Source: an uncultured Acidobacteriaceae bacterium (GTDB lineage: Bacteria > Acidobacteriota > Terriglobia > Terriglobales > Acidobacteriaceae). Taken from it: a stretch of 64,000 nt of DNA. Positions 7,481-22,424 of the stretch are shown here, piece after piece. The notes under the pieces are model-generated. The model searched no databases. It had not been told where the DNA came from and saw only the letters and a list, made by a program, of their open reading frames with translations. The translations under genes and the position numbers were made by a program. The stretch covers positions 4,183,198 to 4,247,197 of the forward strand of contig OY969786.1 in assembly GCA_963703075.1 (NCBI GenBank). Direction: 5' to 3'. Position 1 is the stretch's first letter. Each line of letters begins with the position of its first letter.

Positions 7481-9949
7481 ATGCCGAACAGAAAGGCTGT
7501 TATCAGTATCGCCTTTGGAGCTCTGACCGTCGTGCTGCCCTGTATGGCGCAGACTCTTACGAACGACAACCTCTCCGTAAACGTCAACGCTGAAAGCGGA
7601 ACCTACAGCTTGGCGCCGCGTGATGGTCAACCAGTGCTTGCCTCGCGGGTTGCAGCGCAGGTCAACCATGAATGGCTGCGCTCGTCCGATTACGTGAATT
7701 GCCGATCAGCGTCCTCATCCTTCAGCGATGAACTCGGTCCTGGGCGCCAGGTAGCAGTGACCTGCTCTGGACGCGAAGGCAGGCCAGACTTGGTGTATGT
7801 AGTGCAGTTGTATGATCAGCAGCCTTACGGCGCGGTACAGGTGAAGGTGCACAACGGCACCGGGCAGCCGGTCGCTGTTCAGGCCATTCGCAGTGTCGAC
7901 GCAGTCGGTCAACCGCTTATCAATCTCGGCGGCCGTGCAAGCGTAGACCGGGTACTTTCCGACAGTTTCAGCGAGGATTGGCCCGATCTGAAGATTTACG
8001 ATCTCGGTAAGGCGACGGGCGGGATGCATCGCGGCGTAGGAAGTCAGCTCATCTACAACCGGGAAAGCCGGCAATCTCTATTCCTTGGTGCCTTAACTTC
8101 CGATCGGTTCTTGACGATCCTGCATCTTCAAGCCAATGATGCTGGGGGAGAAGAAAAGATCGCCTCCTTCACCGTCGAATCCACCGGCACGACCGAAATC
8201 CAAAAGGATTTCGATTTGCAACAATCTCCGGCTGACGATCAAGTGGAGCTGACTCTGACGGTCGCGCCAGGGCAAGAACTCGCTTCCGAACGACTTCTGT
8301 TCGAAGCCGGCAAGGACTATCACCGTCAACTGCTGGCCTATGGAGATGCAATTCGTCGCCTCCACCATGCGCGGGCCGATGGCGAAACACCCATGGGATG
8401 GTGGAGCTGGACTGCCTACTATGGCGCGATTAACGAGGGTGAAACCCTGGCCAATGCCGATTGGCAGTCGCAGCACTTAAAGTCCCTCGGATACAAGTAT
8501 TTCCAGATCGATGAAGGCTACCAGTATGCGCGCGGAGAGTTCACCACTACGAATGCCTCACAGTTTCCAGATGGCATGCGTTTCATAGGACACCGCATCG
8601 TTGCGAACGGCCTCACCCTCGGACTTTGGACTGCGCCCTTCGAGGTCACCACCCGAGCCTGGGTCTACGAGCACCATAAAGATTGGCTCGTGCACAACGC
8701 GAAAGGTGAACCCATTCCGATCGGCGATGTCTGGCACCAAGGCACCGACCGTCTGTATGCGTTGGACACCACCCACCCCGCCGCCCAGGACTATCTGCGC
8801 GAAACTTATAAAACCATCGTTCGCGAATGGGGCGTCCGCTTCATCAAGTTGGACTTCATGGATACGACCGCGATCGAGGGCTATTACCACCGGCCCAACA
8901 CCACCGCTCTTGAAGCACAACGTATTGGCCTTCAGATCATCCGCGATACCGTCGGCAATGACGTGGTCCTGGACAAGGATGGGAGCCCGATGCTCAATCC
9001 AGTTGGACTGGTGGACACCGGGCGCGTTTCCGCCGATACCGGACATAACTTTGAGCGAACCCGGGCGGCAGAGCCTGGCGTCGCCGCGCGCTTCTACATG
9101 CACCACAACTTCTTCGTCAACGACCCGGATGCCTTCAACGTCACCGATAGCTACTTGATGGAAGAACGAGAGCCGCAGCCTCCGGTGTCATTATCGGGCG
9201 CCGAGGCGTCGATAGCCCTCTCTGCTGTCTCGGGCGGCATGTACGAGATCGGTGATGACATGCTTTTGTTGGGCTCGGAGAAAGACCGCCTCGCGCTGGT
9301 TGAAAACCGGGACCTGCTGAACATGGTGAAAGTTGGACGAGCCGCCACGCCGATCGACCTGATGGCCTATGAGCCCAAGGATGAACAACCCAGCATCTTC
9401 TTCCTCCGGGAAGACCAACGCCAATCCATGCTGGTAGTTTTTAATTGGACCAAAACAGCTCGCACGCACACCTTGCAATTAGCTGATCTTGGCCTTCCCG
9501 CGGGAGACAAAGTCGTCACGACGGACGTGCTCGACCAGACAGCGCCTACGGTTGCGGGAACCACGGTGACCATTGCAAACCAGCCTCCGCAGTCCGTGAA
9601 AGTGATCAAGATTGTCGATACGGAAATCGCTCCCGCTGCGCCCACGATCACGGCGCGAGTCCCCTCAAGTGCCAAGGCTGGTGACACGGTCGACTTCTTG
9701 GCGCAGGCCGATGCCGCAGGCGTACCCGCGATCTCTTACATGTGGGACTTTGGCGACGGGACAACTGCAGTTGGCAACAAATCCGCCCATACCTACACGC
9801 GTGCCGCCAATTTCGAGGTGCATCTCATCGCTGAGGGACTCGACGGTGTATCAGCCCGGCAGACATTTTCGATCAAAGTGACCGGGACGCTGCAGGTCAT
9901 GCCAAAGCTTCGCGATAACCGACGGTTCGTAGAACCCACGAGCCACTGA
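7481..9949 (+). CDS. Secreted alpha-galactosidase-like glycoside hydrolase (clan GH-D, GH27/GH36-like) with C-terminal PKD domain
   Basis: ATG at 7481 preceded by GGGAG. Signal peptide MPNRKAVISIAFGALTVVLPCMAQ. TIM-barrel motifs GWWSWTAYY...YKYFQIDEGYQ...GLWTAPFEV...RFIKLDFMD. C-terminal YMWDFGDGTTAVGNKSAHTY is a PKD signature. Confidence 0.7.
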   Translation: MPNRKAVISIAFGALTVVLPCMAQTLTNDNLSVNVNAESGTYSLAPRDGQPVLASRVAAQVNHEWLRSSDYVNCRSASSSFSDELGPGRQVAVTCSGREGRPDLVYVVQLYDQQPYGAVQVKVHNGTGQPVAVQAIRSVDAVGQPLINLGGRASVDRVLSDSFSEDWPDLKIYDLGKATGGMHRGVGSQLIYNRESRQSLFLGALTSDRFLTILHLQANDAGGEEKIASFTVESTGTTEIQKDFDLQQSPADDQVELTLTVAPGQELASERLLFEAGKDYHRQLLAYGDAIRRLHHARADGETPMGWWSWTAYYGAINEGETLANADWQSQHLKSLGYKYFQIDEGYQYARGEFTTTNASQFPDGMRFIGHRIVANGLTLGLWTAPFEVTTRAWVYEHHKDWLVHNAKGEPIPIGDVWHQGTDRLYALDTTHPAAQDYLRETYKTIVREWGVRFIKLDFMDTTAIEGYYHRPNTTALEAQRIGLQIIRDTVGNDVVLDKDGSPMLNPVGLVDTGRVSADTGHNFERTRAAEPGVAARFYMHHNFFVNDPDAFNVTDSYLMEEREPQPPVSLSGAEASIALSAVSGGMYEIGDDMLLLGSEKDRLALVENRDLLNMVKVGRAATPIDLMAYEPKDEQPSIFFLREDQRQSMLVVFNWTKTARTHTLQLADLGLPAGDKVVTTDVLDQTAPTVAGTTVTIANQPPQSVKVIKIVDTEIAPAAPTITARVPSSAKAGDTVDFLAQADAAGVPAISYMWDFGDGTTAVGNKSAHTYTRAANFEVHLIAEGLDGVSARQTFSIKVTGTLQVMPKLRDNRRFVEPTSH

Positions 9950-10041
9950 GGGTACGGTCTCTCCACCTGTGGGGCACATGCTGTTGCCTGTTGAAGAATC
10001 GTTGCGAAGAACGCGAGGAAAAGTAGAATACGCCTGATAAC

Positions 10042-10233
10042 CTACTCATTCTTATCCTGCCACTCCTCGTACAAGTGACCGGACCGCGATTTCCGTAAGT
10101 TGCTGAGAACACATTCGTCTGCGCGAGCTAAATCTTCCAGATTTACACCAATTTTGTACACGGCTTGTACACCGATCCTCGGTTCACTCCATAGGTCGAA
10201 GCTAAATATCACGCGAGACAAGCTGTTGGACAC
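10042..10233 (-). CDS. Small IscX-like ORF (possible diverged or truncated iscX paralog)
   Basis: 63-aa ORF ending ...YEEWQDKNE. Its last 24 nt (10049..10072) are identical to the 3' end of the bona fide iscX (16741..16764). The rest resembles IscX only weakly, with an apparent internal deletion. Confidence 0.35.
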   Translation of the reverse strand: MSNSLSRVIFSFDLWSEPRIGVQAVYKIGVNLEDLARADECVLSNLRKSRSGHLYEEWQDKNE

Positions 10234-10291
10234 TGAATCCCCCGGGCGAATCGGCTAACGCGGCGGCCCCAGATCAGCGAGAGCAACCCAA

Positions 10292-11740
10292 TTATTTCAA
10301 ACCAAGTTCGGTGAGTATCTTGGGATTCTTCTCGCCATTGGCCAGAAGAAGATGACACGCGGAACAGTCATTGGTAATCGTCTGACCATCCGCGCTCGTA
10401 TGATTCCCATCGTGACAGCGGAAACACCCTGGCGTATCCATATGCCCGAGATTATTGGGGTGTGTGCCCCAGGTGACGTTCATGTCGGGGAAGATGTTGC
10501 GCAGATAGATCGCCGAGATTTCGTTGGCTGATTGGCTCACCAGCCCACGCCTCGCCTGATAAACATTCGGGTAATTCTGCTGGTAGAAGTTTGTGATTTC
10601 GTCGCGAATTTCCTTCGTCGCTGCTTCACGACTTGAATAATTCGTTTTCAGGAGCTCGACGGCCTTCTTCCTGATAAAGGGCAGATCCGCGCTGATGTGT
10701 CCGAGGCCCATTTGCTTGTTGACGGCGTTGTCAGGGAGCTCAAATGCATGCGTAGGACGGTTATGACAGTCGACGCAGTCCATGACGCGGCTCTCACCTT
10801 TAGCCAATTGTTGGGCACTCGGTTTCACGTCGGTGGAGATGAATTCCGTGGTCTTGCCAGCGTCATCTGTGTAGTACACAGCGGGTATGACCTGCCGCTC
10901 CGCGTCCGTGGCGATATAACGGATGCGCGTTGTGTCGGCGAGGTGGTGGCCATGAATGCCGATCGAGCCCTGCCATGTATGTCCGCCCACTTTCATCAGT
11001 AAGACATTTGTCTGCGGCGTGTTGTTCTCATCTTCCTGGTAGCTGGTTCGAACCAGCAGCTTGTCCCCGGTGAAACGCTCAGGCCAGTGACAGTGTTCAC
11101 ACGTCTCACGCGCTGGCCGCAGATACTTTACCGGAGAAGGGATCGGACGTGAATACGTATGGAAGGTGACTGCATAGACCTGCCGCAGGCCGGAAAGCTT
11201 GGATCTGACGAACCACGAAGCCCCAGGGCCGATGTGACATTCGACACAAGCCACCCGTGAGTGCGGCGAATTCTGATAGGCCGTATATTCGGGCTGCATC
11301 ACCGTGTGGCAGGTAGTTCCGCAGAAACTCGTGGAATCCATGTACTCTACGCCGCGATAGGATGCCGTGCCAACGATCAGAAGATTGAGCAGCGTCGCCG
11401 CGGCAACATATTCCAATGTACGGCGCACGACCGGCAGGTGAAGATCGATGGACGGGTATGCCTTTGGAAGCGTCCCTTGGCTGCGCAGGCTCCTTTGCCG
11501 AATCCAGATACCAAGCGGAATCAGCAGCAAGCCGAGAATAAAGATGCCGGGGAAGATGAGAAAAAACAGTAGCCCGATGTAAGGATGCGGCGGTCCGGGC
11601 AAAACAATTTCATAGAACCAGAAGGCAATCGTCGTAAGCGCCGTACTGGTTGTGATCACCGCTCCGGTGAGCGTGAACGGATTCTGACCGAGGAAATAGA
11701 TAGGTTGCAGCCAGTGCCGTGGCGATTCTCGGAAGCTCAT
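10292..11740 (-). CDS. Inner-membrane multihaem c-type cytochrome, NapC/NirT-like (CymA/ImcH-like architecture)
   Basis: 482 aa with three N-terminal hydrophobic helices. Haem motifs: CGTTCH (CxxxCH variant), CVECH, CEHCH, CVDCH, CFRCH and CSACH. Lies directly downstream of the decahaem/barrel pair. Confidence 0.75.
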   Translation of the reverse strand: MSFRESPRHWLQPIYFLGQNPFTLTGAVITTSTALTTIAFWFYEIVLPGPPHPYIGLLFFLIFPGIFILGLLLIPLGIWIRQRSLRSQGTLPKAYPSIDLHLPVVRRTLEYVAAATLLNLLIVGTASYRGVEYMDSTSFCGTTCHTVMQPEYTAYQNSPHSRVACVECHIGPGASWFVRSKLSGLRQVYAVTFHTYSRPIPSPVKYLRPARETCEHCHWPERFTGDKLLVRTSYQEDENNTPQTNVLLMKVGGHTWQGSIGIHGHHLADTTRIRYIATDAERQVIPAVYYTDDAGKTTEFISTDVKPSAQQLAKGESRVMDCVDCHNRPTHAFELPDNAVNKQMGLGHISADLPFIRKKAVELLKTNYSSREAATKEIRDEITNFYQQNYPNVYQARRGLVSQSANEISAIYLRNIFPDMNVTWGTHPNNLGHMDTPGCFRCHDGNHTSADGQTITNDCSACHLLLANGEKNPKILTELGLK

Positions 11741-11804
11741 AAAGTCCTGGATTGTGGAGTTCGGAAATTCTCTCGGTTCGGTCGCGGGCGAGCACGCACC
11801 AGAA

Positions 11805-14096
11805 TCAGAATGCGTACCGCAAGGATTCGGTCACCGAGTTTGCATGGAAATAACGAGGTGCGGTTGGTCCGACGAACGATCCTTCTGCGTACTGGTAATA
11901 ATTCCAACCGCTGTTCCAACTCATCTTGTGTCCCACGTCGACGCTCAAGTTCGCGACCGGCTGCACATACTTGTATTGAGTCGCACCTTGCGGTTGGAAG
12001 ATGTTTAATTGCGGGATGCTGCCGTCCACATTGGTGATACTGAGACCAAGGTTCGCCGTCAAGCGCTTCGCGGGCTTGAATCGAACGGTACCCATACCGA
12101 AATTCGTATGGTTGATGTAATAGGAATTCGCCAGTAACGGATTGGCGGAGTCATTCGCCGCACAGGAAGCGGCATTGCTCACAAAAGGCAGCGTCACTCC
12201 GATGGGTGGAGTGTCGTTGAAACAGATCAGGGCGTTCTGGATGACATCGTTGTAGTTGTAGGCCAGATCGATGCCAAGACGGTCGTTGGGAGCGATCGAG
12301 GCGGTAACTCCGTAATTGCGGTTGTGACCCACATAATTCGTCAGCGTGTCATTGTTGGCATCCTGGATTATGTTGAGAGATCCTCCCAGGACCACCCACG
12401 GCAGCGGCGTGTAGTTCGTCTGAAACCGGTAGCGCGACTCCTTGCGGGGAGTCATGCGAACGATCACGTTGTCGTAATTGGTATGTTCAAGATCGAAGTT
12501 CATCCGGAAGTTGCGGGTTGGACGGGCCCAGAACCCCATCAGGGCTGTGTATTCGTGCACCACGAAATTGTCGAGATCCCCGGGTAAAAAATCGTTAAAG
12601 TGGTTGAAGACCTGGTCGCCGAAGCGGAAGCCGGCACGCACCCCAACCTTCTTCGAGATATCCCAGGCAAGTTCTGTCTGATTCTTTTGCCATGTCTGAT
12701 TAAAGGACGCCTGGGTCAAGGTGTTGACGGTCGTCGGAGTCGTGGCGCTGAGGGGAGTCAACAACGTGCAAGGCCCCATGCAATCGTTGTCGACCTCGTT
12801 AAAATTGGCATTCTCTGGAATGCGAAAAGCCCAAAAGTAATACTTTTCAATCAGCCGTAGACGTTTGGTAAGGTGCGCGGTCACACCAATGTCCAATACA
12901 TCCGAGATTCGGCTGGCATCGCCCTCTCCCGTGCCCTGGAAGGCGCGGGTACCGGTTCGCGTGATCAGTCCGTTGAATGACTCATAGAGCGGCGTACTCA
13001 TTTCGGCGTCGCTATACGAATAGGAGGCGACCAGATCGATTCGCTGGAAATAATTACTCCGCAAACTCAGCCGCTCCGTTGGTGTGGAAGTGCGAACCCG
13101 CTGGTTGCGCAGATAATTGAAATAGGCACTACAGGTGACGTTGGTGAGAGTTCCACCGGGACCAATCAGGCTGGTAGCGGGTGGCTTTACCGCACAGGGT
13201 TCGTTGTTCGCAGGATCGAAAGACAATCCCAACTCAACCGGTTCTCCGCCAGGAAGGAGCGCGGGGTTGAATGTGGCAAGTTGCGAGTCCGTGTCGCCTT
13301 TGTAGTAATCGAGCGATTGATCGTAGCTGATCACGGTTCGTGGCAGAACCCTCCAATCGATTCCCATGCGGAAAGAGTTCATCGTTGTGTTCCAGCCTTG
13401 CAGGAGAAGTGCCTCTGTGCCCTCGTGCAGGCTGCTGAAGGAGGGCCCCGTCATGTTGTTGTGCGAATATCCCAAACGAAAACTTACCGTGGACTCAGGT
13501 AATAACGTGAGATCGACATCCGTCATTCGTCGGGCGGTGTTGTCGAATTCGTGCGGCGAGTTCAGCACCGGAACCGAAGGCACTGCGGTGGGGGGATTTA
13601 GGGGATTCGCTAGCAGGTCGTAATTGAAGTAGCTTACGTCGCGACGGAAACTGCCCTGCAGGTTGTACCACTTGTGCTTATCTGCCCGTAGCCGGGCCAC
13701 GGCATTCGGATCTCCGCCAAACCCAAAGCTATTGAGGTAGAGATCGTCGAACAGCACGCCCTGGTGAGCCAGGGACTGCATTGAGAGTGTCTGGTCAAGA
13801 AATCGTGGGCCGCTCTGCAGATTCACCAGCGTGTCGTACATGTCGTCACTGCCGGCAACGTTGTTATAGCGATACCCCAATTCGACCGAAGAGTGGATAA
13901 GATACCCGCCGCTGTTGATGCCTTCCTGCTGGGAAGGCGGATCAGTGCCCGCGGCGGCCGATTGACCAAGAAGACGCGTCGACAACACTAAGATGAGCGC
14001 CAAAACCATAAGAGCGCAACGGATTTGCGGCGTTACGAGGTGCTCAATCAAGGAGATGACGAAATGCAACGGGCCGAACGTTCTTGGCGATTTCAT
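11805..14096 (-). CDS. Large outer-membrane beta-barrel protein, MtrB/PioB/MtoB-like by position
   Basis: ATG at 14096 with a GGAGAA RBS, 10 nt after the decahaem gene stop. Signal/TM segment ...ALMVLALILVLSTRLLGQ. 763 aa rich in Tyr/Asn/Gly/Asp with alternating hydrophobic strands. Terminal SLRYAF beta-signal. The family call rests on context, not on a verified alignment. Confidence 0.6.
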   Translation of the reverse strand: MKSPRTFGPLHFVISLIEHLVTPQIRCALMVLALILVLSTRLLGQSAAAGTDPPSQQEGINSGGYLIHSSVELGYRYNNVAGSDDMYDTLVNLQSGPRFLDQTLSMQSLAHQGVLFDDLYLNSFGFGGDPNAVARLRADKHKWYNLQGSFRRDVSYFNYDLLANPLNPPTAVPSVPVLNSPHEFDNTARRMTDVDLTLLPESTVSFRLGYSHNNMTGPSFSSLHEGTEALLLQGWNTTMNSFRMGIDWRVLPRTVISYDQSLDYYKGDTDSQLATFNPALLPGGEPVELGLSFDPANNEPCAVKPPATSLIGPGGTLTNVTCSAYFNYLRNQRVRTSTPTERLSLRSNYFQRIDLVASYSYSDAEMSTPLYESFNGLITRTGTRAFQGTGEGDASRISDVLDIGVTAHLTKRLRLIEKYYFWAFRIPENANFNEVDNDCMGPCTLLTPLSATTPTTVNTLTQASFNQTWQKNQTELAWDISKKVGVRAGFRFGDQVFNHFNDFLPGDLDNFVVHEYTALMGFWARPTRNFRMNFDLEHTNYDNVIVRMTPRKESRYRFQTNYTPLPWVVLGGSLNIIQDANNDTLTNYVGHNRNYGVTASIAPNDRLGIDLAYNYNDVIQNALICFNDTPPIGVTLPFVSNAASCAANDSANPLLANSYYINHTNFGMGTVRFKPAKRLTANLGLSITNVDGSIPQLNIFQPQGATQYKYVQPVANLSVDVGHKMSWNSGWNYYQYAEGSFVGPTAPRYFHANSVTESLRYAF

Positions 14097-14106
14097 CGGT
14101 TCTCCG

Positions 14107-15066
14107 CTACTTGAAAAAGACGTCGCTGAAGTTCGACCCGTGGATGGCAACGTGACACATGGTGCACGCCTGATACTTCGCTGACTGATTGTGGGCAGGC
14201 CCGGCAGGCCCCTGCGTTGGGAAGGTGTGACACTGCAAGCAGAGGATGTTCACCTGGCTGAGTTTCAGAAGCCGAGGATTGGTGGAACCATGCGGGGTGT
14301 GGCAGCTAATACAGCCCTCGGTTTTCACCGGCACATGTTCGTAGACGAACGGCCCTTGCTTATCGACGTGGCACTTGTAGCAAACCGCGTCCCCGCTTGC
14401 GAGAGTACGCAATTGCCGGATCGTCGCTGTCCCGTGAGGATCGTGGCAGTCGCTACACTGCACCAGCCCTTCGTTCACCCGGTGATGATACGGTTTTGCA
14501 AAGTCCGCTTTGGCGGTGACGTGACATCCGTAACACAACTGCGGCTGGTTCTGAACCAGGAGATGTTCCGGCTCTTTAGCGTGATGTGGAGAATGACAAT
14601 CCAGGCAGCCGACGTCATTGCTGGCATGCGCTGAATCCGAGAAGTGTGCCTGCGCGTGCGCTTCGCCGTGACATGTCAAGCAACGTGCGCTTGTCTCCTG
14701 TCTTGATTTGCCTGTGAAGACGAAGATCGTGCTCTTGTCTCCTCCACCGGCGACGTGTTCTGCGCCAGGACCGTGACAGCCCTCGCAACCCTGTTTAGAT
14801 GGACCCCCTTTTGTGTCGAGAGTGGTCTTCCAGTGAGGAGTCTTTGCCCAATTGTTGTAGATGTCTTCGTGACAGGTTTTGCAGGTGTCTGCACCAACGT
14901 AGTTCGAGTCAGATGTTGAGGCCGCACTCGGAATAGCAGAGTTCGTCCTCTGAGCGCTCTTATCGCTTACTTGCGGAGCCTGCGCGTGCAAATAGATCCC
15001 GCATGCGAGAAGGAACATCAGCGCAGATAGAGGCACTCGACAGGCGCGGGATGTAAACATTCGCAC
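14107..15066 (-). CDS. Periplasmic decahaem c-type cytochrome, MtrA/DmsE/PioA/MtoA family
   Basis: 319 aa with a signal peptide. Exactly ten CxxCH motifs (CKTCH, CEGCH, CLTCH, CLDCH, CYGCH, CSDCH, CYKCH, CISCH, CLQCH, CTMCH). C-terminal CHVAIHGSN resembles MtrA-type proteins. Size matches MtrA (about 330 aa). Confidence 0.85.
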   Translation of the reverse strand: MRMFTSRACRVPLSALMFLLACGIYLHAQAPQVSDKSAQRTNSAIPSAASTSDSNYVGADTCKTCHEDIYNNWAKTPHWKTTLDTKGGPSKQGCEGCHGPGAEHVAGGGDKSTIFVFTGKSRQETSARCLTCHGEAHAQAHFSDSAHASNDVGCLDCHSPHHAKEPEHLLVQNQPQLCYGCHVTAKADFAKPYHHRVNEGLVQCSDCHDPHGTATIRQLRTLASGDAVCYKCHVDKQGPFVYEHVPVKTEGCISCHTPHGSTNPRLLKLSQVNILCLQCHTFPTQGPAGPAHNQSAKYQACTMCHVAIHGSNFSDVFFK

Positions 15067-15087
15067 TCTCCCTAAAGATACGGTTAC

Positions 15088-16211
15088 TTAATTGGCGAAA
15101 GCCCCATCGTTCTTGAGCACTACCTTTAACGCGCCTTCTTTGGCCGCATTTCCAAACGTCTCGTATGCCTTCAGGATGTCTTTCATCGCGAATGTATGGG
15201 TGACCAGCTTGTGGGGCTGCAATTTGCCGGAAGCCACGATCTTCAGCAACATAGGGGTTGTGACCGTATCCACCAGTCGCGTGGTAAGTGCGATATTGCG
15301 ATCCCAGAGCTTCTCCATGTGCAGCGTCACCGGTTTGCCGTGGACGCCGACGTTGGCATTCGTCCTCCGGCGGCAACGATTGCCTCGCATATCTCGAGAG
15401 TTGCCGGAAGACCGACCGCTTCAATGGCAACATCCACACCTGCACCTTTGGTCATCTCCATCACAAGGCGGGCCGCTTGCCCATCGGCACTATTGATCGT
15501 CGTGGTGGCGCCAAATTGCTTCGCGACGGCCAGCCGCTTGTCATCAAGATCGATCACGATAATCGCGGAGGGCGAATAGAATTGCGCCGTCAGCAAAACC
15601 GCCGTGCCAACCGGGCCAGCACCGACAATCGCGACCGTGTCCGCTGGTTTCACTTGTCCATTGAGCACGCCGCACTCGAATCCAGTCGGCAGAATGTCAC
15701 TCAGCATTACGAATGCATCTTCGTCTCCGCCCACTGGCAGAGGGTAGAGACTGCCATCCGCATAAGGGATGCGCACATATTCAGCCTGCGTTCCATCTAA
15801 CGTGTAACCCAGAATCCATCCACCGTTACGGCAGTGAGAATACATCTGCTTCTTGCAGAAATCGCACTTCAGACAGGCCGTAACACAGGAGACGATTACT
15901 TTATCCCCTACATGAAACTGCGAAACATTCTTTCCAATCTGCTCGATTACGCCAATGCCTTCATGGCCGAGAATGCGGCCATCCGTCACCGCCGGAAGAT
16001 CGCCTTTCAGGATGTGAAGATCGGTGCCGCAAATCGTCGAGGTAGTGATTCGCACGATCGCGTCACTCTCATGTTGAATAGAAGGGCGTGGCTTGACCTC
16101 CCATGAAGGCTTGCCCGGACCGTGATAGACAAGCGCTTGCATGTTGCTGCTGGAAGGATCGGTATGCGTCATCGGCAAGGCTAGGTCGGCGGTTGTCATG
16201 GGGATTCCCAT
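15088..16211 (-). pseudogene. Zinc-dependent alcohol dehydrogenase (MDR family) interrupted by a 1-nt frameshift
   Basis: Two adjacent ORFs (15327..16211 and 15088..15390) together make one MDR alcohol dehydrogenase. Motifs: GHEGIGVIEQIG, structural-Zn CLKCDFCKKQMYSHC, Rossmann AIVGAGPVG, then ...IVAAGG | ANVGVHGKPVTLHMEKLW...LVDTVTTPMLL. The frames switch near 15357-15362. The likely true start is MQALVYHG at 16142. Confidence 0.8.
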
Positions 16212-16426
16212 CGAGGAACTGCACGAGGGTAGACGAAGAGAATGCCTTCAGATGTGCAATATTGCTCAGATCAAGAAAGAAAGCATTTCAAAGGGGAGTG
16301 GCGAGCACAGATGCTCAGCCGAAATTCTATTCAGCCCCTAGGCACTCGCGGTGAATGCGACGAAGCTCCATCACGGAGCGTTCCTCGCCCTCAAGCGACA
16401 AGTGATGGGCGAGGAGAGCGAAGACT

Positions 16427-16733: not shown

Positions 16734-16952
16734 TTAACTGTTCTTATCCTGCCACTCCTCGTACCACGCCATCTGGATTGCTTCCAGCTTGCCTTCATTT
16801 GATTTGCCAGGATCGTCGACGAACGTTGGCAGTTCCGTGATCTTCTTATGAAGATCCGTGAAGCGCACCTCCAAAGGGTTCAGCTCGGGAAATTTTTCCG
16901 ACAGCTCGATGCCGAGGTCTTCCGCATCGTCCCAGCGCAGCTCAGCAGCCAT
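16734..16952 (-). CDS. iscX: Fe-S cluster assembly protein IscX
   Basis: 72 aa: MAAELRWDDAEDLGIELSEKFPELNPLEVRFTDLHKKITELPTFVDDPGKSNEGKLEAIQMAW... This aligns with E. coli IscX (W.D..EIG, DP..VRFTD.H, DDP..SNE..LEAI). ATGA overlap with the fdx stop. Confidence 0.85.
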   Translation of the reverse strand: MAAELRWDDAEDLGIELSEKFPELNPLEVRFTDLHKKITELPTFVDDPGKSNEGKLEAIQMAWYEEWQDKNS

Positions 16953-17368
16953 CAGTGGGTCTCCGAGACATAGTTGCGATTCCACGCCGGGATCTCCACC
17001 ACGATTTCGCCAGGCTTTTCGATCTGCACCTGGCACCCAAGCCGCGACTCCAGCTGCAAGTCCGCCGCACCATCAAGCCGGTCGGCTTCATCATCGTCAA
17101 GCTCGCTCAGGCACTCTTTGCCTTTCTTCACCACGACGTGGCACGTGGTGCACGCGCAATTGCCGCCGCACGCATGGTCGAGGTTCACGCCGAAATTCAG
17201 CGCAACATCGAGAATCGACTCGGGCTTGCCGTGGTCCTGGTACTGCAGCTTTCCGTGCTCGAATTCCACCGTTTTGTTTTCGGGGAGAAAGGTCACGCGC
17301 ACGACATTCGCCGGGTTCGCTCCTTCGATTGTCACCGTACTGCCTGCATTGTTCTTCTCTTCTGCCAT
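16952..17368 (-). CDS. fdx: ISC-type [2Fe-2S] ferredoxin (adrenodoxin-like)
   Basis: CGGNCACTTCHV ... RLGCQV cysteine pattern, in the position between hscA and iscX. Confidence 0.9.
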   Translation of the reverse strand: MAEEKNNAGSTVTIEGANPANVVRVTFLPENKTVEFEHGKLQYQDHGKPESILDVALNFGVNLDHACGGNCACTTCHVVVKKGKECLSELDDDEADRLDGAADLQLESRLGCQVQIEKPGEIVVEIPAWNRNYVSETH

Positions 17369-17374
17369 AGATTC

Positions 17375-19279
17375 CTATTTCTCGAATTCCGCCGGGGCAA
17401 ACGGATGCGGAGCCGAAGGCCCTTCGCCAAGATCGGTCTTCGCCATATCCTTGCCCTTCAGTGCTGATGTCACTGCCGAATCCATCATGACTTCCGCCAG
17501 GTGCATCGTGGCCTTGTTGAGTGCGTCGATCGCCGTGCGAATCGCCTTGTAATCGTTTGTTTCCTTGTCGGTGCGCAAAACAGATTCAAGCTTATCGATC
17601 TCTACTTTTTCGTCTTCCGCCAGGAACGACCACGCATCGCTGCGTCTCGATTTATCGAGAGCGGCCAGGATGGTCTCTGCTTCGGTCCGCGCCTCGATCA
17701 CTTGCCGCTTCGCGAAATCGTCTTCGGCGTAATCGAACGACTCGAGAATCATGGTCTCGACCTGCTCGTCCGTGAGCCCATAGGTCGGCTGCACTTCGAT
17801 TTCCGAAGCTTTCCCGCTGCGCTGTTCCCGCGCTGAAACATGCAAAATCCCATTCGCATCGATTAAGAACTTCACCTCGATGCGTGGTAGCCCCGCCGGC
17901 ATGGGTGGAATCCCCTTCAAGTCGAAACGCGCGAGGGACCTGCAATCGCTGGCCAGTTCCCGTTCTCCCTGCACCACGTGGATGGCGACGCTGGTCTGTC
18001 CTTCCACGCCGGTGGTGAAGTGCTCCGTGGCGGATGCCGGGATGGTCGAGTTACGCAGGATGATCTTCGCCACGACGCCGCCGAGCGCTTCGATTCCCAG
18101 CGAGAGCGGGGTCACGTCCAACAGCAGCATTTCCTTGGTGGCTTCCGATCCGCCAGAAAGAATGTTCGCCTGCACCGCCGCGCCCAACGCGACCACTTCA
18201 TCCGGATTCAACTCGCTGTGCGGAGTTTTGCGGAACATTTGCTCCACCAGTGCGCGCACCCGCGGAATTCGCGTCGAGCCGCCTACCATCACAGCTTCGT
18301 CGATCTGTTCCGGCGTGACATCGGCGTCTTTCATCGCCTGTTTCACCGGACCCGTGGTTCGCTCGATCACCGATTGAATCAGCTGTTCGAACTGTTCCCG
18401 CGAAATCTCGCGCTGATATCGTTTCCCGCCCGCGAGTTCCACATCCAGCTTGGCAGACGCCTGCGACGACAGCGCAATCTTTGCGTCGATCACCGACTTG
18501 CGCACCGCCTGGATCGCCTCCGCGTTCCGACGGATATCGACGCCCATATCGCCCGCAATGTCCAGCACCGCGGTCGAGATCAGGAGGTTATCGATGTCAT
18601 CGCCACCCAGGTGCGTGTCGCCGTTGGTCGACATCACCTCGAAGATCCCGTCGTGCAACTTGAGAATTGAGATATCGAACGTCCCACCGCCCAGGTCATA
18701 GACCGCGATGGTTCCGTTCCTCTTCTTATCGAGACCGTAGGCCAGTGAGGCCGCCGTCGGCTCGTTGACGAGTCGCAGAACCTCAAGTCCCGCAATCCGT
18801 CCCGCATCTTTCGTCGCCTGCCGCTGCGCATCGTTGAAGTAGGCGGGCACTGTAATGACCGCTTTGGTCACCGGCGCTGCGAAATAGCGCTCCGCGTTCT
18901 TCTTGAGTTGCCGGAGAATAAATGCCGAAATCTCCGGTGGGGTATACGTTCTTTCCCCCAAGTGAATGCGAATCACTTCGCCGGACGCAAGATCGTCGGC
19001 CACGCGAAAAGGGAAGAGCTTCAACTCATCCTGGATGTCTTCCACGCCGCGTCCCATCAGCCGCTTGATCGAATACACCGCGCGTTCCGGCGTTTCGATC
19101 AGGTACTTGCGCGCCGCATTTCCCACTACGATCTGCCCAGCCGGATCCAGCGCTACGATCGATGGCACAAGGTTTGCGCCATCCTCCCCCGGAATCACCA
19201 CCGGGCGGTCGCCTTCCATGTAGGCCACGAGCGAGTTGGTGGTGCCCAGGTCGATTCCTACTACGCGTTCTTCTGCCAT
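17375..19279 (-). CDS. hscA: Fe-S protein assembly chaperone HscA (Hsp70 family)
   Basis: [20 protein letters not shown]..., [12 protein letters not shown] and full Hsp70 architecture. The ATG at 19279 overlaps the hscB stop (TGATG). The longer upstream ORF extension is rejected. Confidence 0.9.
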
Positions 19280-20043
19280 CAGTATCCCAGGACGTCGTTC
19301 ACGTCGCGGACGAGATTGCGTATGTAGGTGCGCCGGTTCAGCAAATCGACCATCTTCAATGTGATCGGCTTGCGCTCCGCATCGCCTGCTTCCTGCGCCA
19401 GCAACGCATCCCACTCGTCCCAGTATTTTTTCAGTTCGTTGTCGAGCCCGCGATAACGCTCCTGCAATTCGCTCCGCGTCTGCTCGAGTTGCTTGGCAAG
19501 ATCGGGGTCGTCTTCGCCCATCTTCTTGCCCATGCGCATTTCTTCGAGCTGCATGTTCAGCTCAAACACCTCTTCCAGCATGTCCGGCGGAATCGCCTGC
19601 TCTTTTTGCTTGCCGCTGCTGCGCGCTTCTTCCGTCGCGCTTTTCGACTGTTCGCCGAAATTGATGCCTTCCGTGCGCAGCAGATACTCCGTGCGCGCAA
19701 TCGGTTCTTTGAGCGTGCGATAAGCGTCATTCAGCTGCGAAGTTTTCTCCAGGCTCCATTGCTGCTCCTGCGAGTCCGATTGCGCGTAACGGTCAGGATG
19801 CAGTTTGCGGCTCAGCGTGTAGAACTCCCGCTCCAGTTGAGCCAGGTCGATATTGAGCTTGTGGGGCAGCCCGAAGAACGAGAAATAGTCCGTCGGGATC
19901 GCAGGCTGCACGGATCCGCAGTTGTTGCAGAAGTGAGCCGCGCGCATGTCCCCGCACGACCAGCACTGCACCGTCGTGCGCCCGGCACTTTCGCCGTTCA
20001 ACACCGGTATCGCGGAGTACGTGTTTTGTTTAGGCTCAGTCAT
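19279..20043 (-). CDS. hscB: Fe-S assembly co-chaperone HscB with an N-terminal Cys4 zinc-finger extension
   Basis: J-domain [35 protein letters not shown] (HPD motif), preceded by CWSCG-x8-CNNCG. Lies between iscA and hscA. Confidence 0.85.
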
Positions 20044-20111
20044 TGATCTTTCGGAAATGCTCCGTGAAAGTGCAACGCGGCCAGCCGATGTCCCCGCTTG
20101 TACCCCCGTCA

Positions 20112-20156
20112 CTCTCTGTTGTCATCCAGAGGAGCGTAGCGACGTAGGGACCTGCT
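20112..20156. repeat. REP-like intergenic repeat, copy A (hscB-iscA gap)
   Basis: CTCTCTGTTGTCATCCAGAGGAGCGTAGCGACGTAGGGACCTGCT. Nearly identical to copy B and clearly related to copy C. Contains a GCGTAGC mini-hairpin. Confidence 0.8.
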
Positions 20157-20174
20157 TTTCCGCGACCGGGGTGG

Positions 20175-20546
20175 TTACGCGAACGAACTCCCGCACCCGC
20201 ACGATTTCGAGGCGTTCGGATTGACGAAGACGAACCGCTGATTCATCAGGGTCTCTTCGTAATCCAGCGTCATCCCGTTCAAATAGATGAACGACTTCGG
20301 ATCAACGAAAACCCGGATGTCGCTGTATTGAAAAATGCGGTCGCGTTCGCGCGGCTGCGTGTCGAAGCGGACGTTGTAACTCAGTCCCGAGCATCCGCCG
20401 CCCTGCACTCCCAGCCGCAAGCCGCCTTCGTCCGGCGACACGCCTTCCTTCGCCATCGCGATCCGGATCTTCTCGAGAGCTTTCTCGGTGATCTGGATCC
20501 CCTTGGCAGGCGCAGCTTGCGTCCGTGGAGTCTCTATCGTGGTCAT
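20175..20546 (-). CDS. iscA: Fe-S cluster insertion/scaffold protein IscA (HesB family)
   Basis: GGGCSGLSY ... CGCGSSFA C-terminal motif; 123 aa. Confidence 0.9.
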   Translation of the reverse strand: MTTIETPRTQAAPAKGIQITEKALEKIRIAMAKEGVSPDEGGLRLGVQGGGCSGLSYNVRFDTQPRERDRIFQYSDIRVFVDPKSFIYLNGMTLDYEETLMNQRFVFVNPNASKSCGCGSSFA

Positions 20547-20606
20547 TGCTCTTTCCCTTCAGCGGTCCCGACGCCGGCTGTCAATGCTGCGGACGCTCAC
20601 ATCGCC

Positions 20607-20648
20607 CTCTCTGTCATCCAGAGGAGCGTAGCGACGTTGGGACCTGCT
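20607..20648. repeat. REP-like intergenic repeat, copy B (iscA-iscU gap)
   Basis: CTCTCTGTCATCCAGAGGAGCGTAGCGACGTTGGGACCTGCT. Differs from copy A by one substitution and a 3-nt indel. Confidence 0.8.
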
Positions 20649-20652
20649 GCTG

Positions 20653-21039
20653 TTACTGGTTGTTCTTCTTCTTCCAGTCGCCAATCGCCGCGCGGATCGC
20701 GTCTTCCGCGAGTACCGAGCAGTGGATCTTCACCGGAGGAAGCGAAAGTTCCTTCACAATGTCCGTGTTCTTGATCGACAACGCTTCATCGACCGTCTTG
20801 CCCTTCACCCACTCCGTAGCCAGCGAAGACGAAGCGATCGCCGAGCCGCAGCCGAACGTCTTGAACTTCGCTTCCTCAATGACGTTGGTCGCGGGATTTA
20901 CCCGGATTTGCAGCTTCATCACGTCGCCGCACTCCGGAGCGCCGACCAGTCCCGTGCCTACCGTGTCGCTGCTCTTATCGAGCGAGCCCACGTTCCGCGG
21001 GTTCGTGTAGTGATCCAGTACCTTTTCGCTGTATGCCAT
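20653..21039 (-). CDS. iscU: Fe-S cluster assembly scaffold IscU
   Basis: MAYSEKVLDHYTNPRNVGSL..GAPECGDVMKLQI..FKTFGCGSAIASSS..LPPVKIHCSVLAEDA (three conserved Cys). ATG at 21039 with a GAGGAG RBS. Confidence 0.9.
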   Translation of the reverse strand: MAYSEKVLDHYTNPRNVGSLDKSSDTVGTGLVGAPECGDVMKLQIRVNPATNVIEEAKFKTFGCGSAIASSSLATEWVKGKTVDEALSIKNTDIVKELSLPPVKIHCSVLAEDAIRAAIGDWKKKNNQ

Positions 21040-21084
21040 TTCTTTTATTAACTCCTCATCGAATTCGTCTGTGATGCTCTTTAT

Positions 21085-21126
21085 CTGGTTGTCATTGCGA
21101 GGAGCGAAGCGACGCGGCAATCTGCT
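21085..21126. repeat. REP-like intergenic repeat, copy C (iscU-iscS gap)
   Basis: CTGGTTGTCATTGCGAGGAGCGAAGCGACGCGGCAATCTGCT. Same family as copies A and B. ATTGC/GCAAT stem and a GCGAAGC mini-hairpin. Confidence 0.75.
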
Positions 21127-21146
21127 GTAGCTCGCGCTCCACATCT

Positions 21147-22424
21147 TCAATGCCCGCCGGCTTCCGCAGCCCACTGCACTTTCGTCAAGTCCACGCCTTC
21201 TTTATGCATCTCGTAGAGCGGCGACAACTCACGCAGCCGCTTTACGACGTCGATCAACTTGTTCGCCACGTAATCGACTTCGGCTTCGGTGTTGAAGCGG
21301 CCCAGTCCGAAGCGAATCGAGCTGTGGGCCAAATCGTCGCCCGCGCCCAGCGCCTTCAATACATACGATGGCTCCAGCGTCGCCGAGGTGCACGCCGATC
21401 CGCTCGAAACCGCGATGTCGTTGATTCCCATCAACAACGATTCGCCTTCGACGAACGCGAAGCTGATATTCAAATTTCCCGGCAGGCGGTGTTCCCACGA
21501 GCCGTTGATGTAAACCTCGTCCAGCTCCGCGAAAATCCTGTCCTTCAGCCGGTCGCGCAGACCGATGAGGTGCTTCGTCTCTTTCTCCATCTCCTGCATC
21601 GCCAGTTCGCAAGCCTTGCCGAGACCGACAATGCCCGGAACATTCAAGGTTCCCGACCGCATGCCGCGCTCGTGGCCGCCACCGTCGATCTGCGCCACCA
21701 CTTGTACCCGCGGATTCTTGCGGCGTACATAGAGCGCGCCCACACCCTTCGGTCCGTAGAGCTTGTGTCCCGTTATCGACGCCAGGTCTACGTTGTCCTG
21801 GATCACGTTGAAGGGAACCTTGCCGACCGCCTGTACCGCATCGGTGTGGAAGACCACGCCCTTTTCATGGCACAGCGCGCCAATCTCGCGGATCGGCTGC
21901 AACACCCCGATCTCGTTATTCGCCGCCATGATCGTGACCAGGATGGTCTTGTCGTCCATCGCCCGGCGCAGGTCATCGAGGTCGATGCGCCCGTCTTTCT
22001 GCACCGGCAAATACGTAACCCGGAAACCGTCCTTTTCAAGACGCTTGCAGGTATCGAGCACCGCCTTGTGCTCCGTTACCTGGGTGATGATGTGGTTGCC
22101 CTTCTCGCGGTACATCTGCGCCACACCCTTGATCGCCAGGTTGTCGCTCTCCGTCGCGCCCGAGGTGAAGATGATTTCCTTCGACGTGGCGCCGATCAGC
22201 TTCGCAATGCGCTCGCGTGCCTGGTCCACAGCCTGTTCCGCCACCCATCCAAATTCATGATTGCGCGAAGCCGCATTGCCGAACTTCTCGATGAAGTAAG
22301 GAATCATCTCGTCGAGAACGCGCTGATCCATCGCTGTGGTCGCGTGGTTGTCCATGTAAATCGGCAATTTCACCGCGTTGTCCTTCGAATTCTCACTGCC
22401 GTGATGATTTCCATTCGTGCTCAT
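21147..22424 (-). CDS. iscS: Cysteine desulfurase IscS
   Basis: PLP-lysine motif [11 protein letters not shown], active-site SSGSACTS and class-V aminotransferase fold; 425 aa. Confidence 0.92.

Follow-up and report, generated by a model that had tools for sequence, protein, structure and literature searches.

Conduits that pair a decahaem cytochrome with an outer-membrane barrel have been described as the Mtr system of Shewanella, the Mto system of Sideroxydans lithotrophicus and the Pio system of Rhodopseudomonas, and the strand number reported for the MtrB, PioB and MtoB barrels is 26 (PMC10654088). On the inner-membrane side, homologues of Geobacter ImcH have been defined by three N-terminal transmembrane (TM) helices, an adjoining atypical CX3CH motif and five to nine CX2CH motifs (PMC6295460). 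Parts of such systems have been noted in Acidobacteria: MtrA homologues in 2013 (PMC3669403), candidate mtrA/mtrB genes of isolates, read as incomplete operons, in 2018 (PMC5900883), and ImcH homologues in 2014 and 2018 (PMC4251993, PMC6295460), with 19 of the latter counted in the 2018 survey, which found no mtrAB or mtoAB genes adjacent to imcH (PMC6295460). Here we analysed three genes, named A, B and C, that lie at 10292..15066 on the minus strand of a 64-kb stretch of DNA from an uncultured Acidobacteriaceae bacterium (contig OY969786.1, positions 4,183,198 to 4,247,197; this whole stretch is called the window). An earlier note, made from the letters of the window, had read these genes as an MtrAB/MtoAB-like electron conduit with a CymA- or ImcH-like inner-membrane partner. 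Our analysis points to the same core reading, and we consider it likely that A, B and C encode an Mtr/Mto-type trans-envelope electron conduit with the following layout:

14107..15066, minus strand: gene A, decahaem cytochrome assigned to the DmsE/MtrA/MtoA/PioA family (CxxCH motifs, TIGR03508, PDB 6R2Q chain A)
14097..14106, minus strand: A-B spacer of 10 nucleotides, containing GGAGAA (direct sequence reading)
11805..14096, minus strand: gene B, predicted 26-strand barrel of 763 amino acids (AlphaFold2 and Foldseek; no Pfam assignment)
11741..11804, minus strand: B-C spacer of 64 nucleotides (coordinates)
10292..11740, minus strand: gene C, inner-membrane multihaem cytochrome of 482 amino acids, assigned to the ImcH family (motifs, hydropathy, PF03264 and NrfH models)

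A decahaem cytochrome of the MtrA/DmsE family

In the open reading frame (ORF) list of the window the three genes are co-directional and ordered A-B-C, at the positions where the earlier note had placed them. A and C are the only multihaem ORFs in the entire 64 kb and, in line with the note, no MtrC-type surface decahaem was found there. A carries exactly ten CxxCH motifs (residues 62, 94, 129, 154, 178, 204, 229, 252, 276 and 301), no variant motifs and a C-terminal tail reading ...CTMCHVAIHGSNFSDVFFK. Motifs and tail agree with the secreted decahaem that the note had described, whereas its length of 319 amino acids probably needs correction: the GTG start at 15066 abuts a purine-rich GGGAGAG and the ATG at 15060 lies 5 nucleotides downstream of it, a spacing that suggests a protein of 317 amino acids, in agreement with the 315-317 amino acids of A in the gene calls of related genomes.

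A scored 277.8 bits against the DmsE-family decahaem model TIGR03508 (cut-off 192.2), covering model positions 1-257 of 258, so this check, proposed in the note, came out in its favour. The GSU2203 (OmcK) family model NF041028 gave 224.3 bits, below its cut-off of 325. Among PDB sequences phmmer returned only one strong match, chain A of 6R2Q (E = 4.3e-39, residues 46-313), and in this alignment ten of ten CxxCH motifs were paired and colinear. 6R2Q is the Mtr complex of Shewanella baltica, and its chain A is MtrA. A density of ten haem motifs per about 320 residues, taken with these family scores, is far beyond chance, and by its sequence A is a secure member of the MtrA/DmsE/MtoA/PioA family. 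At the N-terminus a hydrophobic stretch is followed by ...HAQA, with PQ as the next residues, which was judged by eye as a signal peptide. A lipoprotein (LLAC, residues 19-22) was considered and rejected, because the cysteine is missing in the four homologue N-termini inspected.

A predicted barrel that resembles MtrB in its fold

B starts at the ATG at 14096, 10 nucleotides past the TAG of A and behind GGAGAA, and ends in SLRYAF after 763 residues, all of which the earlier note had read correctly. The 10-nucleotide spacing suggests translational coupling of A and B, and in the public gene calls of relatives this gap measures 10 nucleotides in L001, 13 in L082 and 27 in L084. The protein contains 8.3% N, 7.9% T, 7.6% S, 6.9% G, 5.6% D and 4.8% Y; its N-terminal hydrophobic segment ends in ...LLGQ before SAAAG, and both the export signal and the aromatic beta-signal SLRYAF were judged by inspection. 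The B family is large, with more than 2000 clusters at 90% identity and 1382 clusters at 50% identity (E <= 1e-3). The best 120 of the 90% clusters, all at least 68% identical to B, come from Terriglobales and 'Ca. Sulfotelmatobacter' and are unnamed or called 'hypothetical'. No protein identical to B was found in the public gene index.

Searches of B against Pfam gave no match, with no plug or TonB-receptor domain, and phmmer found no relative among PDB sequences. The sole NCBIfam match was to NF041027, the GSU2204 family (E = 3.4e-6, 26.1 bits against a cut-off of 350), at the C-terminal end of the model. This family model was also matched by 18 of 27 diverse B-family members (29-69% identical to B), which were aligned and scanned singly, with a best E of 5e-10; faint OMP_b-brl matches were the only other result of the sequence route from B to MtrB. 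GSU2204 is listed as an MtrB/PioB-family barrel in one review (PMC13188914).

The fold of B was predicted with AlphaFold2 from a 114-sequence alignment comprising two clades (32-92% identity). The model (mean pLDDT 79.6, pTM 0.71) shows 26 long beta strands by DSSP and almost no helix outside the signal region; the strand count proposed in the earlier note as a check was thus consistent with the very large barrel it had postulated. A Foldseek search of the PDB with this model placed 6R2Q_B (MtrB) at the top (E = 1.7e-15, TM-scores 0.57/0.66, 12% identity, root mean square deviation 8 A), followed by 22-strand TonB-dependent receptors (E >= 2e-11, TM-scores 0.33-0.41), so that the E-value of MtrB is four orders of magnitude better than that of the second match. 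The reading of B as a TonB-dependent receptor was rejected on account of its 26 rather than 22 predicted strands, the lack of a plug domain and the lower TM-scores. As modelled, B is MtrB-like by fold and genomic position, yet it fails the sequence-model test of that family.

There is no CXXC motif anywhere in B. An N-terminal CXXC is a feature of the MtrB proteins of gammaproteobacterial metal reducers and is not universal in PioB and MtoB. Two other pairs of cysteines, C301/C322 (around 13133..13196) and C625/C645 (around 12164..12224), are conserved in 100%/87% and 100%/83%, respectively, of the 114 family members; in the model both pairs fall in long loops of lower confidence, where they may be joined as disulfides. 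In addition, one metagenomic protein of 894 amino acids (P0264) is a B-family barrel with a class-I monohaem cytochrome c fused to its C-terminus (CxxCH at residue 821), a fusion that supports a functional link between the barrel and a small cytochrome.

An inner-membrane cytochrome with the ImcH signature

C follows B after 64 nucleotides and encodes 482 amino acids with one CX3CH motif (CGTTCH) at residue 140 and five CxxCH motifs at 165, 214, 322, 439 and 459, in agreement with the earlier description. The three N-terminal hydrophobic peaks seen at that time were also recovered, at residues 22-40, 55-74 and 108-126, of which the middle one is strong (Kyte-Doolittle, KD, 2.8) and the outer two are moderate (KD 1.35 and 1.49). 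These positions are comparable to the TM segments of the ImcH homologue ACP_0476 of Acidobacterium capsulatum (21-43, 58-80 and 113-135; PMC6295460). ACP_0476 (479 amino acids) has its haem motifs at 142, 166, 214, 317, 434 and 454, and a Geobacteraceae ImcH homologue at 135, 159, 208, 314, 431, 451 and 489 (Table S3, PMC6295460), which gives spacings of 24/48/103/117/20 and 24/49/106/117/20/38, respectively, compared with 25/49/108/117/20 in C.

Profile searches placed the beginning of the haem region of C close to NapC/NirT proteins. The N-terminal NapC/NirT model PF03264, which the earlier note had suggested for this gene, was matched with 37.1 bits (cut-off 24.1) over residues 117-197; the NrfH model TIGR03153 gave E = 9.5e-15, and chain C of the NrfH structure 2J7A gave E = 2.8e-5 over residues 111-219. 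Judged by its signature and by the published lists, which include Acidobacteriaceae homologues, C is a member of the ImcH family and not a CymA. The note had left both names standing, and of the two only ImcH agrees with the signature and the haem spacing: CymA was rejected since C scored 12.9 bits against the NapC/NirT subfamily model TIGR02161 (cut-off 310.6) and has three TM segments, six haems and 482 amino acids versus one, four and about 190.

The conservation of C is extremely high: of 8000 scored candidates 7999 gave a match, and the best 120 are 76-91% identical to it, nearly all exactly 482 amino acids long and usually named 'NapC/NirT family cytochrome c'. Furthermore, the ImcH-like genes clustered as neighbours of A-B in related loci (see below) all open with CX3CH and retain the 117/20 intervals (31 of 31), and eight of these 31 have a seventh haem at +38 or +39. 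In two other loci (L086, 7572..14584, and L087) an ImcH-like protein of 482 amino acids, 78% identical to C, is preceded by a class-I cytochrome c and followed, in this order, by a 19-haem cytochrome of 679 amino acids, a membrane protein of 294 amino acids and a CbcL-like protein that has 13 haems and a b-type membrane domain, which looks like an inner-membrane cytochrome supercluster in Terriglobales.

Conservation of the cluster in related genomes

When one genome of each GTDB species was scanned, at least 597 genomes showed a B relative. The best 80 of these, together with L001, gave 81 loci, in which neighbours within 8 kb were searched with tblastn. The best 80 are labelled Terriglobia or Acidobacteriota, except for a few labelled Chlamydiota, Ca. 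Binatia or Ca. Eisenbacteria that may be mis-binned contigs, and the nearest relative is an Acidobacteriaceae metagenome-assembled genome from Stordalen 'palsa' (L002; 86% identity for B, 95% for A). A homologue of A lies directly upstream of B in 79 of the 81 loci, and the remaining two (L024, L053) hold four-haem fragments in its place; the pairing is maintained over B identities of 38-86%. Neighbourhood conservation, which the earlier note had proposed to check, was therefore strong for the A-B pair and held only in part for C, because an ImcH-like gene was found within 8 kb in only 33 of the 81 loci. These ImcH-like genes fall into two classes, 68-73% and 43-49% identical to C.

Crude gene calls and clustering of about 1250 neighbouring ORFs all against all showed that the recurrent neighbour families are limited to redox and regulatory functions. 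Besides the ImcH-like genes, these were a class-I monohaem cytochrome c of about 105 amino acids (PF13442, here c1; 24 loci), a Crp/Fnr regulator (11 loci) and a CbcL-like protein of about 700 amino acids (5 loci) that combines 11 CxxCH motifs with a C-terminal PF01292 b-type membrane domain, the architecture of CbcL, MtrH and MtoC. The genes were found as A-B alone, A-B-C, A-B-c1-C, C-c1-A-B (about 15 loci), C-A-B and A-B-(c1)-CbcL-C, with A-B-C present in the window and in L063, L065, L066, L067 and L070. That ImcH-like genes occur beside A-B in five or more different gene orders speaks for selection and not for inherited synteny, and this linkage in varied orders, together with the CbcL-like genes in the cluster, suggests a functional connection of A-B with quinol-pool cytochromes. 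In L026 (10403..12478), and also in L037, L076 and L078, the CbcL/MtrH/MtoC-like gene separates the barrel gene from the ImcH-like gene, and both known quinol-oxidase families of extracellular electron transfer (EET) are linked here to one outer-membrane conduit.

Two cultured species, Acidicapsa ligni and Pseudacidobacterium ailaaui, contain the genes as A-B-c1-ImcH operons. In Acidicapsa ligni a divergent Crp/Fnr gene lies upstream. In Pseudacidobacterium ailaaui (L082, 1..5756) the cluster, here read as A-B-c-c-ImcH, directly follows hycI, hypC, hypD, hypE, hypA, hypB and hypF, and a gene for cytochrome c assembly (PF01578) comes after it; the adjoining hydrogenase maturation genes hint at hydrogen as a possible electron donor.

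The composition of these neighbourhoods also bears on whether A-B could instead serve an extracellular or periplasmic terminal reductase, as in DmsEFAB-like systems, or reductive iron acquisition. The best curated family of A is named after DmsE, and some Geobacterales operons with DmsE/MtrA and porin genes hold ABC-transporter genes and were read as possible metal uptake systems (PMC11492766). However, neither a molybdoenzyme or DmsAB-type gene, nor an MtrC-type cytochrome, nor an ABC transporter was recurrent beside A-B in the 81 loci, and the flanks of the cluster in the window contain no terminal reductase, molybdopterin/DmsAB-type gene or ABC transporter. Since the recurrent neighbours are instead quinol-linked cytochromes, a role of this kind appears very improbable, and a DmsEFAB-type system in particular was rejected for want of a recurrent reductase neighbour. 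The tie to a DmsAB-type reductase that the earlier note had named as a danger to its own reading was thus not observed.

Flanking genes

The genes around the cluster in the window comprise a frameshifted Zn-dependent alcohol dehydrogenase, an isc operon, a glycosidase-like gene with a PKD-like tail and a large membrane protein. The alcohol dehydrogenase (15088..16211, minus strand), directly upstream of A, is split into overlapping ORFs of 294 and 100 amino acids, with ...GGRMPTSAS in one frame and ANVGVHGKP in the next; this change of frame points to a single-base deletion near 15375 and hence to a pseudogene or an assembly error. The same alcohol dehydrogenase family adjoins the A-B pair in seven related loci, and a gene with an alcohol dehydrogenase domain lies near the pair in Acidicapsa ligni. 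Close upstream of the split alcohol dehydrogenase, at 16952..22424 (minus strand), there is a complete isc operon (iscS, iscU, iscA, hscB, hscA and fdx), identified from translations only. In the B-C spacer no promoter-like or terminator-like consensus site was found, although such scans are uninformative for Acidobacteria, and over 9900-16400 the site counts did not exceed the shuffle expectation and none was informative.

Proposed mechanism and direction of electron flow

Taken as a conduit, the three proteins would, in the best-supported model, work as follows. C would be held in the inner membrane by its three-helix anchor, use its NrfH/NapC-like haem-1 region for electron exchange with the menaquinone pool and relay the electrons along six c-haems that face the periplasm. 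A would receive them straight from C or from a soluble cytochrome of the periplasm whose gene lies elsewhere, and in the relatives that possess it the c1 cytochrome probably assists this crossing. A, as an MtrA-like rod of ten haems, would thread the lumen of the 26-strand barrel B so that its last haem is exposed at the surface. In the absence of a surface cytochrome of the MtrC type, A may react directly, at its exposed end, with Fe(III) in soluble or chelated form, with Mn, or with the quinone groups of organic matter, humic as well as particulate. Such substrates fit the acidic, organic soils where Terriglobales live.

If the conduit model is accepted, we somewhat favour an outward flow, in which quinol is oxidised and an extracellular acceptor is reduced when oxygen is limiting. 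To date, ImcH homologues are known from Fe(III) reducers only, and quinol oxidation is the one role in which they have been implicated (PMC6295460), Geobacter ImcH is required for the reduction of high-potential extracellular acceptors (PMC4251993), and Acidicapsa species and Acidobacterium capsulatum reduce Fe(III) micro-oxically by means of genes not yet assigned (review PMC8790237). The same hardware could also run inwards in the manner of Mto and Pio, with A in B taking electrons from extracellular Fe(II) or reduced humics; these would reach a terminal oxidase by way of a periplasmic cytochrome c, the quinone pool by way of C, or both. In this regard, a conduit without an MtrC-type surface cytochrome is what MtoAB and PioAB share, the order of decahaem, barrel and quinol dehydrogenase is like mtoA-mtoB-cymA, Terriglobales are mainly aerobes, and 24 related clusters encode the class-I monohaem cytochrome c, which resembles MtoD of the mto cluster. 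Against this stand the restriction of ImcH homologues to Fe(III) reducers and the Fe(III) reduction documented in Acidobacteriaceae isolates, both cited above, and the Crp/Fnr-type regulators beside the cluster, which fit a low-oxygen control and are only suggestive. Moreover, Fe(II) oxidation by Terriglobales has, to our knowledge, not been reported. We therefore regard inward flow as rather unlikely and retain the outward direction as the preferred one.

Several observations weigh against the conduit as a whole or against the place of C in it. B gave no match to either MtrB/PioB model, TIGR03509 or PF11854, so that the TIGR03509 check advanced in the earlier note failed; 26 diverse B relatives likewise gave no match to these models (E <= 1 for Pfam, E <= 0.01 for NCBIfam), and a B-family profile found no match among PDB sequences. 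Because the MtrB/PioB sequence models fail, the link from B to MtrB is structural, through the predicted model, complemented by the weak GSU2204-family match. In the window's own subclade, where B is at least 64% identical to that of the window, an ImcH-like gene was found at a distance of up to 8 kb in only two of about 27 loci. The orthologue nearest to C (91% identity) occurs by itself, behind a response regulator, on a contig of 2.2 Mb, and an orthologue with 78% identity belongs to another inner-membrane cytochrome cluster, which lacks A-B. Given this rarity in the subclade and these lone or displaced orthologues, the adjacency seen in the window is one of several arrangements and not a fixed operon. 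In addition, no periplasmic shuttle is encoded in the 64-kb window, and the 'complete route' from the quinol pool to the surface claimed in the earlier note was in this respect overstated. Lastly, incomplete acidobacterial mtr sets have been read as arguing against dissimilatory iron reduction (Eichorst et al. 2018, PMC5900883).

The lack of sequence similarity between B and the MtrB models could mean that B is an unrelated large porin or transporter, that A is a purely periplasmic carrier and that the likeness to MtrAB is superficial, and the many 22-strand TonB-dependent receptors that Foldseek returned with high probability would agree with this. Such a coincidence seems to us extremely improbable, because A and B are adjacent in effectively all 81 loci, with a spacing of 10-27 nucleotides where public gene calls show it, because the model has 26 strands and not 22, without any match to a plug or TonB-receptor domain, and with MtrB clearly the best structural match, and because two thirds of the scanned family members (18/27) match the family of GSU2204, the neighbour of the decahaem OmcK/GSU2203. 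A trans-envelope conduit formed by A and B, with C as its quinol-pool partner in the window, accordingly remains the reading that we prefer; its core, as the earlier note had put it, agrees with the TIGR03508 score of A, with the alignment of A to MtrA and with MtrB as the best structural match of B.

Implications for acidobacterial respiration

The interest of this module lies in its spread in dominant soil bacteria, in its invisibility to standard surveys with hidden Markov models (HMMs) and in the hint it gives at what ImcH connects to. Terriglobales are one of the most abundant soil bacterial orders and dominate acidic soils and peat, where extracellular respiration bears on models of carbon turnover and methane suppression. 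The EET gene surveys known to us rely on MtrB/PioB HMMs. The barrel escapes these models, so that the module is likely under-counted; relatives of the barrel occur in at least 597 species-level genomes. Furthermore, an ImcH-family gene beside an Mtr-type conduit bears on the open question of the interaction partner of ImcH (PMC4251993), and the four-gene version in the cultured Acidicapsa ligni and Pseudacidobacterium ailaaui makes the model testable now.

A wider proposal, which we put forward tentatively and hold to be possible rather than probable, is that the module holds the missing genes behind the micro-oxic reduction of Fe(III) and humics by Terriglobales, present in hundreds of species and missed by MtrB-based surveys, and that its repeated linkage to imcH-like genes marks, for the ImcH family, a first partner pathway in the outer membrane. 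In a bolder and likewise possible form, ImcH would run in reverse and aerobic Acidobacteria would harvest electrons from Fe(II) or reduced organic matter.

Relation to described systems

Compared with the Mtr system of Shewanella (MtrA-MtrB in 6R2Q), the cluster shares a decahaem that aligns to MtrA, a barrel model whose best match is MtrB, and a decahaem gene followed by a barrel gene. It differs in that neither the cluster nor the window contains an MtrC/OmcA surface decahaem, in that B is only 12% identical to MtrB, is missed by the MtrB/PioB HMMs and has no CXXC, and in that the inner-membrane partner is of the ImcH type and not CymA. The two-component design without a surface cytochrome is that of MtoA-MtoB(-MtoD)-CymA of Sideroxydans lithotrophicus and PioAB of Rhodopseudomonas. 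The order of decahaem, barrel and quinol-pool cytochrome is likewise that of Mto, and many relatives possess, in addition, a small monohaem cytochrome c of class I like MtoD. However, Mto and Pio oxidise Fe(II), whereas the direction suggested here is an inferred one; the quinol-pool partner of Mto is the tetrahaem CymA or the CbcL-like MtoC, in contrast to an ImcH-type protein; and MtoB and PioB both match the MtrB/PioB family models, which B does not.

Compared by signature, C resembles ImcH of Geobacter sulfurreducens (GSU3259) in its three N-terminal TM segments, the first CX3CH by the third of them, the NapC/NirT homology over this segment and the first haems, and the spacing of the haems that follow. 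It has six haem motifs against seven in GSU3259, the last one being absent as in the Acidobacteriaceae homologues of Table S3 (PMC6295460). Geobacter imcH is monocistronic and its partners are unknown (PMC4251993), whereas the C gene directly follows an outer-membrane conduit. A and B are also comparable to OmcK (GSU2203) and GSU2204 of Geobacter sulfurreducens, which have consecutive locus tags and both showed a modest induction with iron oxides, of about 2.4-2.7-fold for hematite (PMC4070692). The GSU2203 model gives A 224 bits, and B and 18 of its 27 scanned family members match the GSU2204 model, although the scores of A and B lie below the curated cut-offs (325 and 350 bits), which makes them related proteins and not members. 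Unlike B, GSU2204 carries a CXXCH and is a selenoprotein in some species, and the Geobacter pair has no assigned function. The matches to the GSU2204 family and the adjoining locus tags of GSU2203 and GSU2204 make A-B look like a distant relative of this pair.

Phylum and habitats are shared with the EET1 and EET2 clusters of Acidobacteriota (Fiorito et al. 2026, bioRxiv 10.64898/2026.05.27.727921), which likewise have divergent MtrB-like porins recognised only by structure and for which electron transfer to peat organic matter was proposed; the main text of that study does not mention ImcH or NapC. EET1 combines a porin, an NHL propeller and a cytochrome c, and EET2, from Bryobacterales, combines MtrC, a DmsE-family decahaem, a porin and a cytochrome c, so that neither equals a decahaem, a barrel and an ImcH. 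What is new in the cluster described here is thus not a principle: it is the combination of a DmsE-family decahaem with a barrel that the sequence models tried do not recognise and with an ImcH-type partner, without a surface cytochrome.

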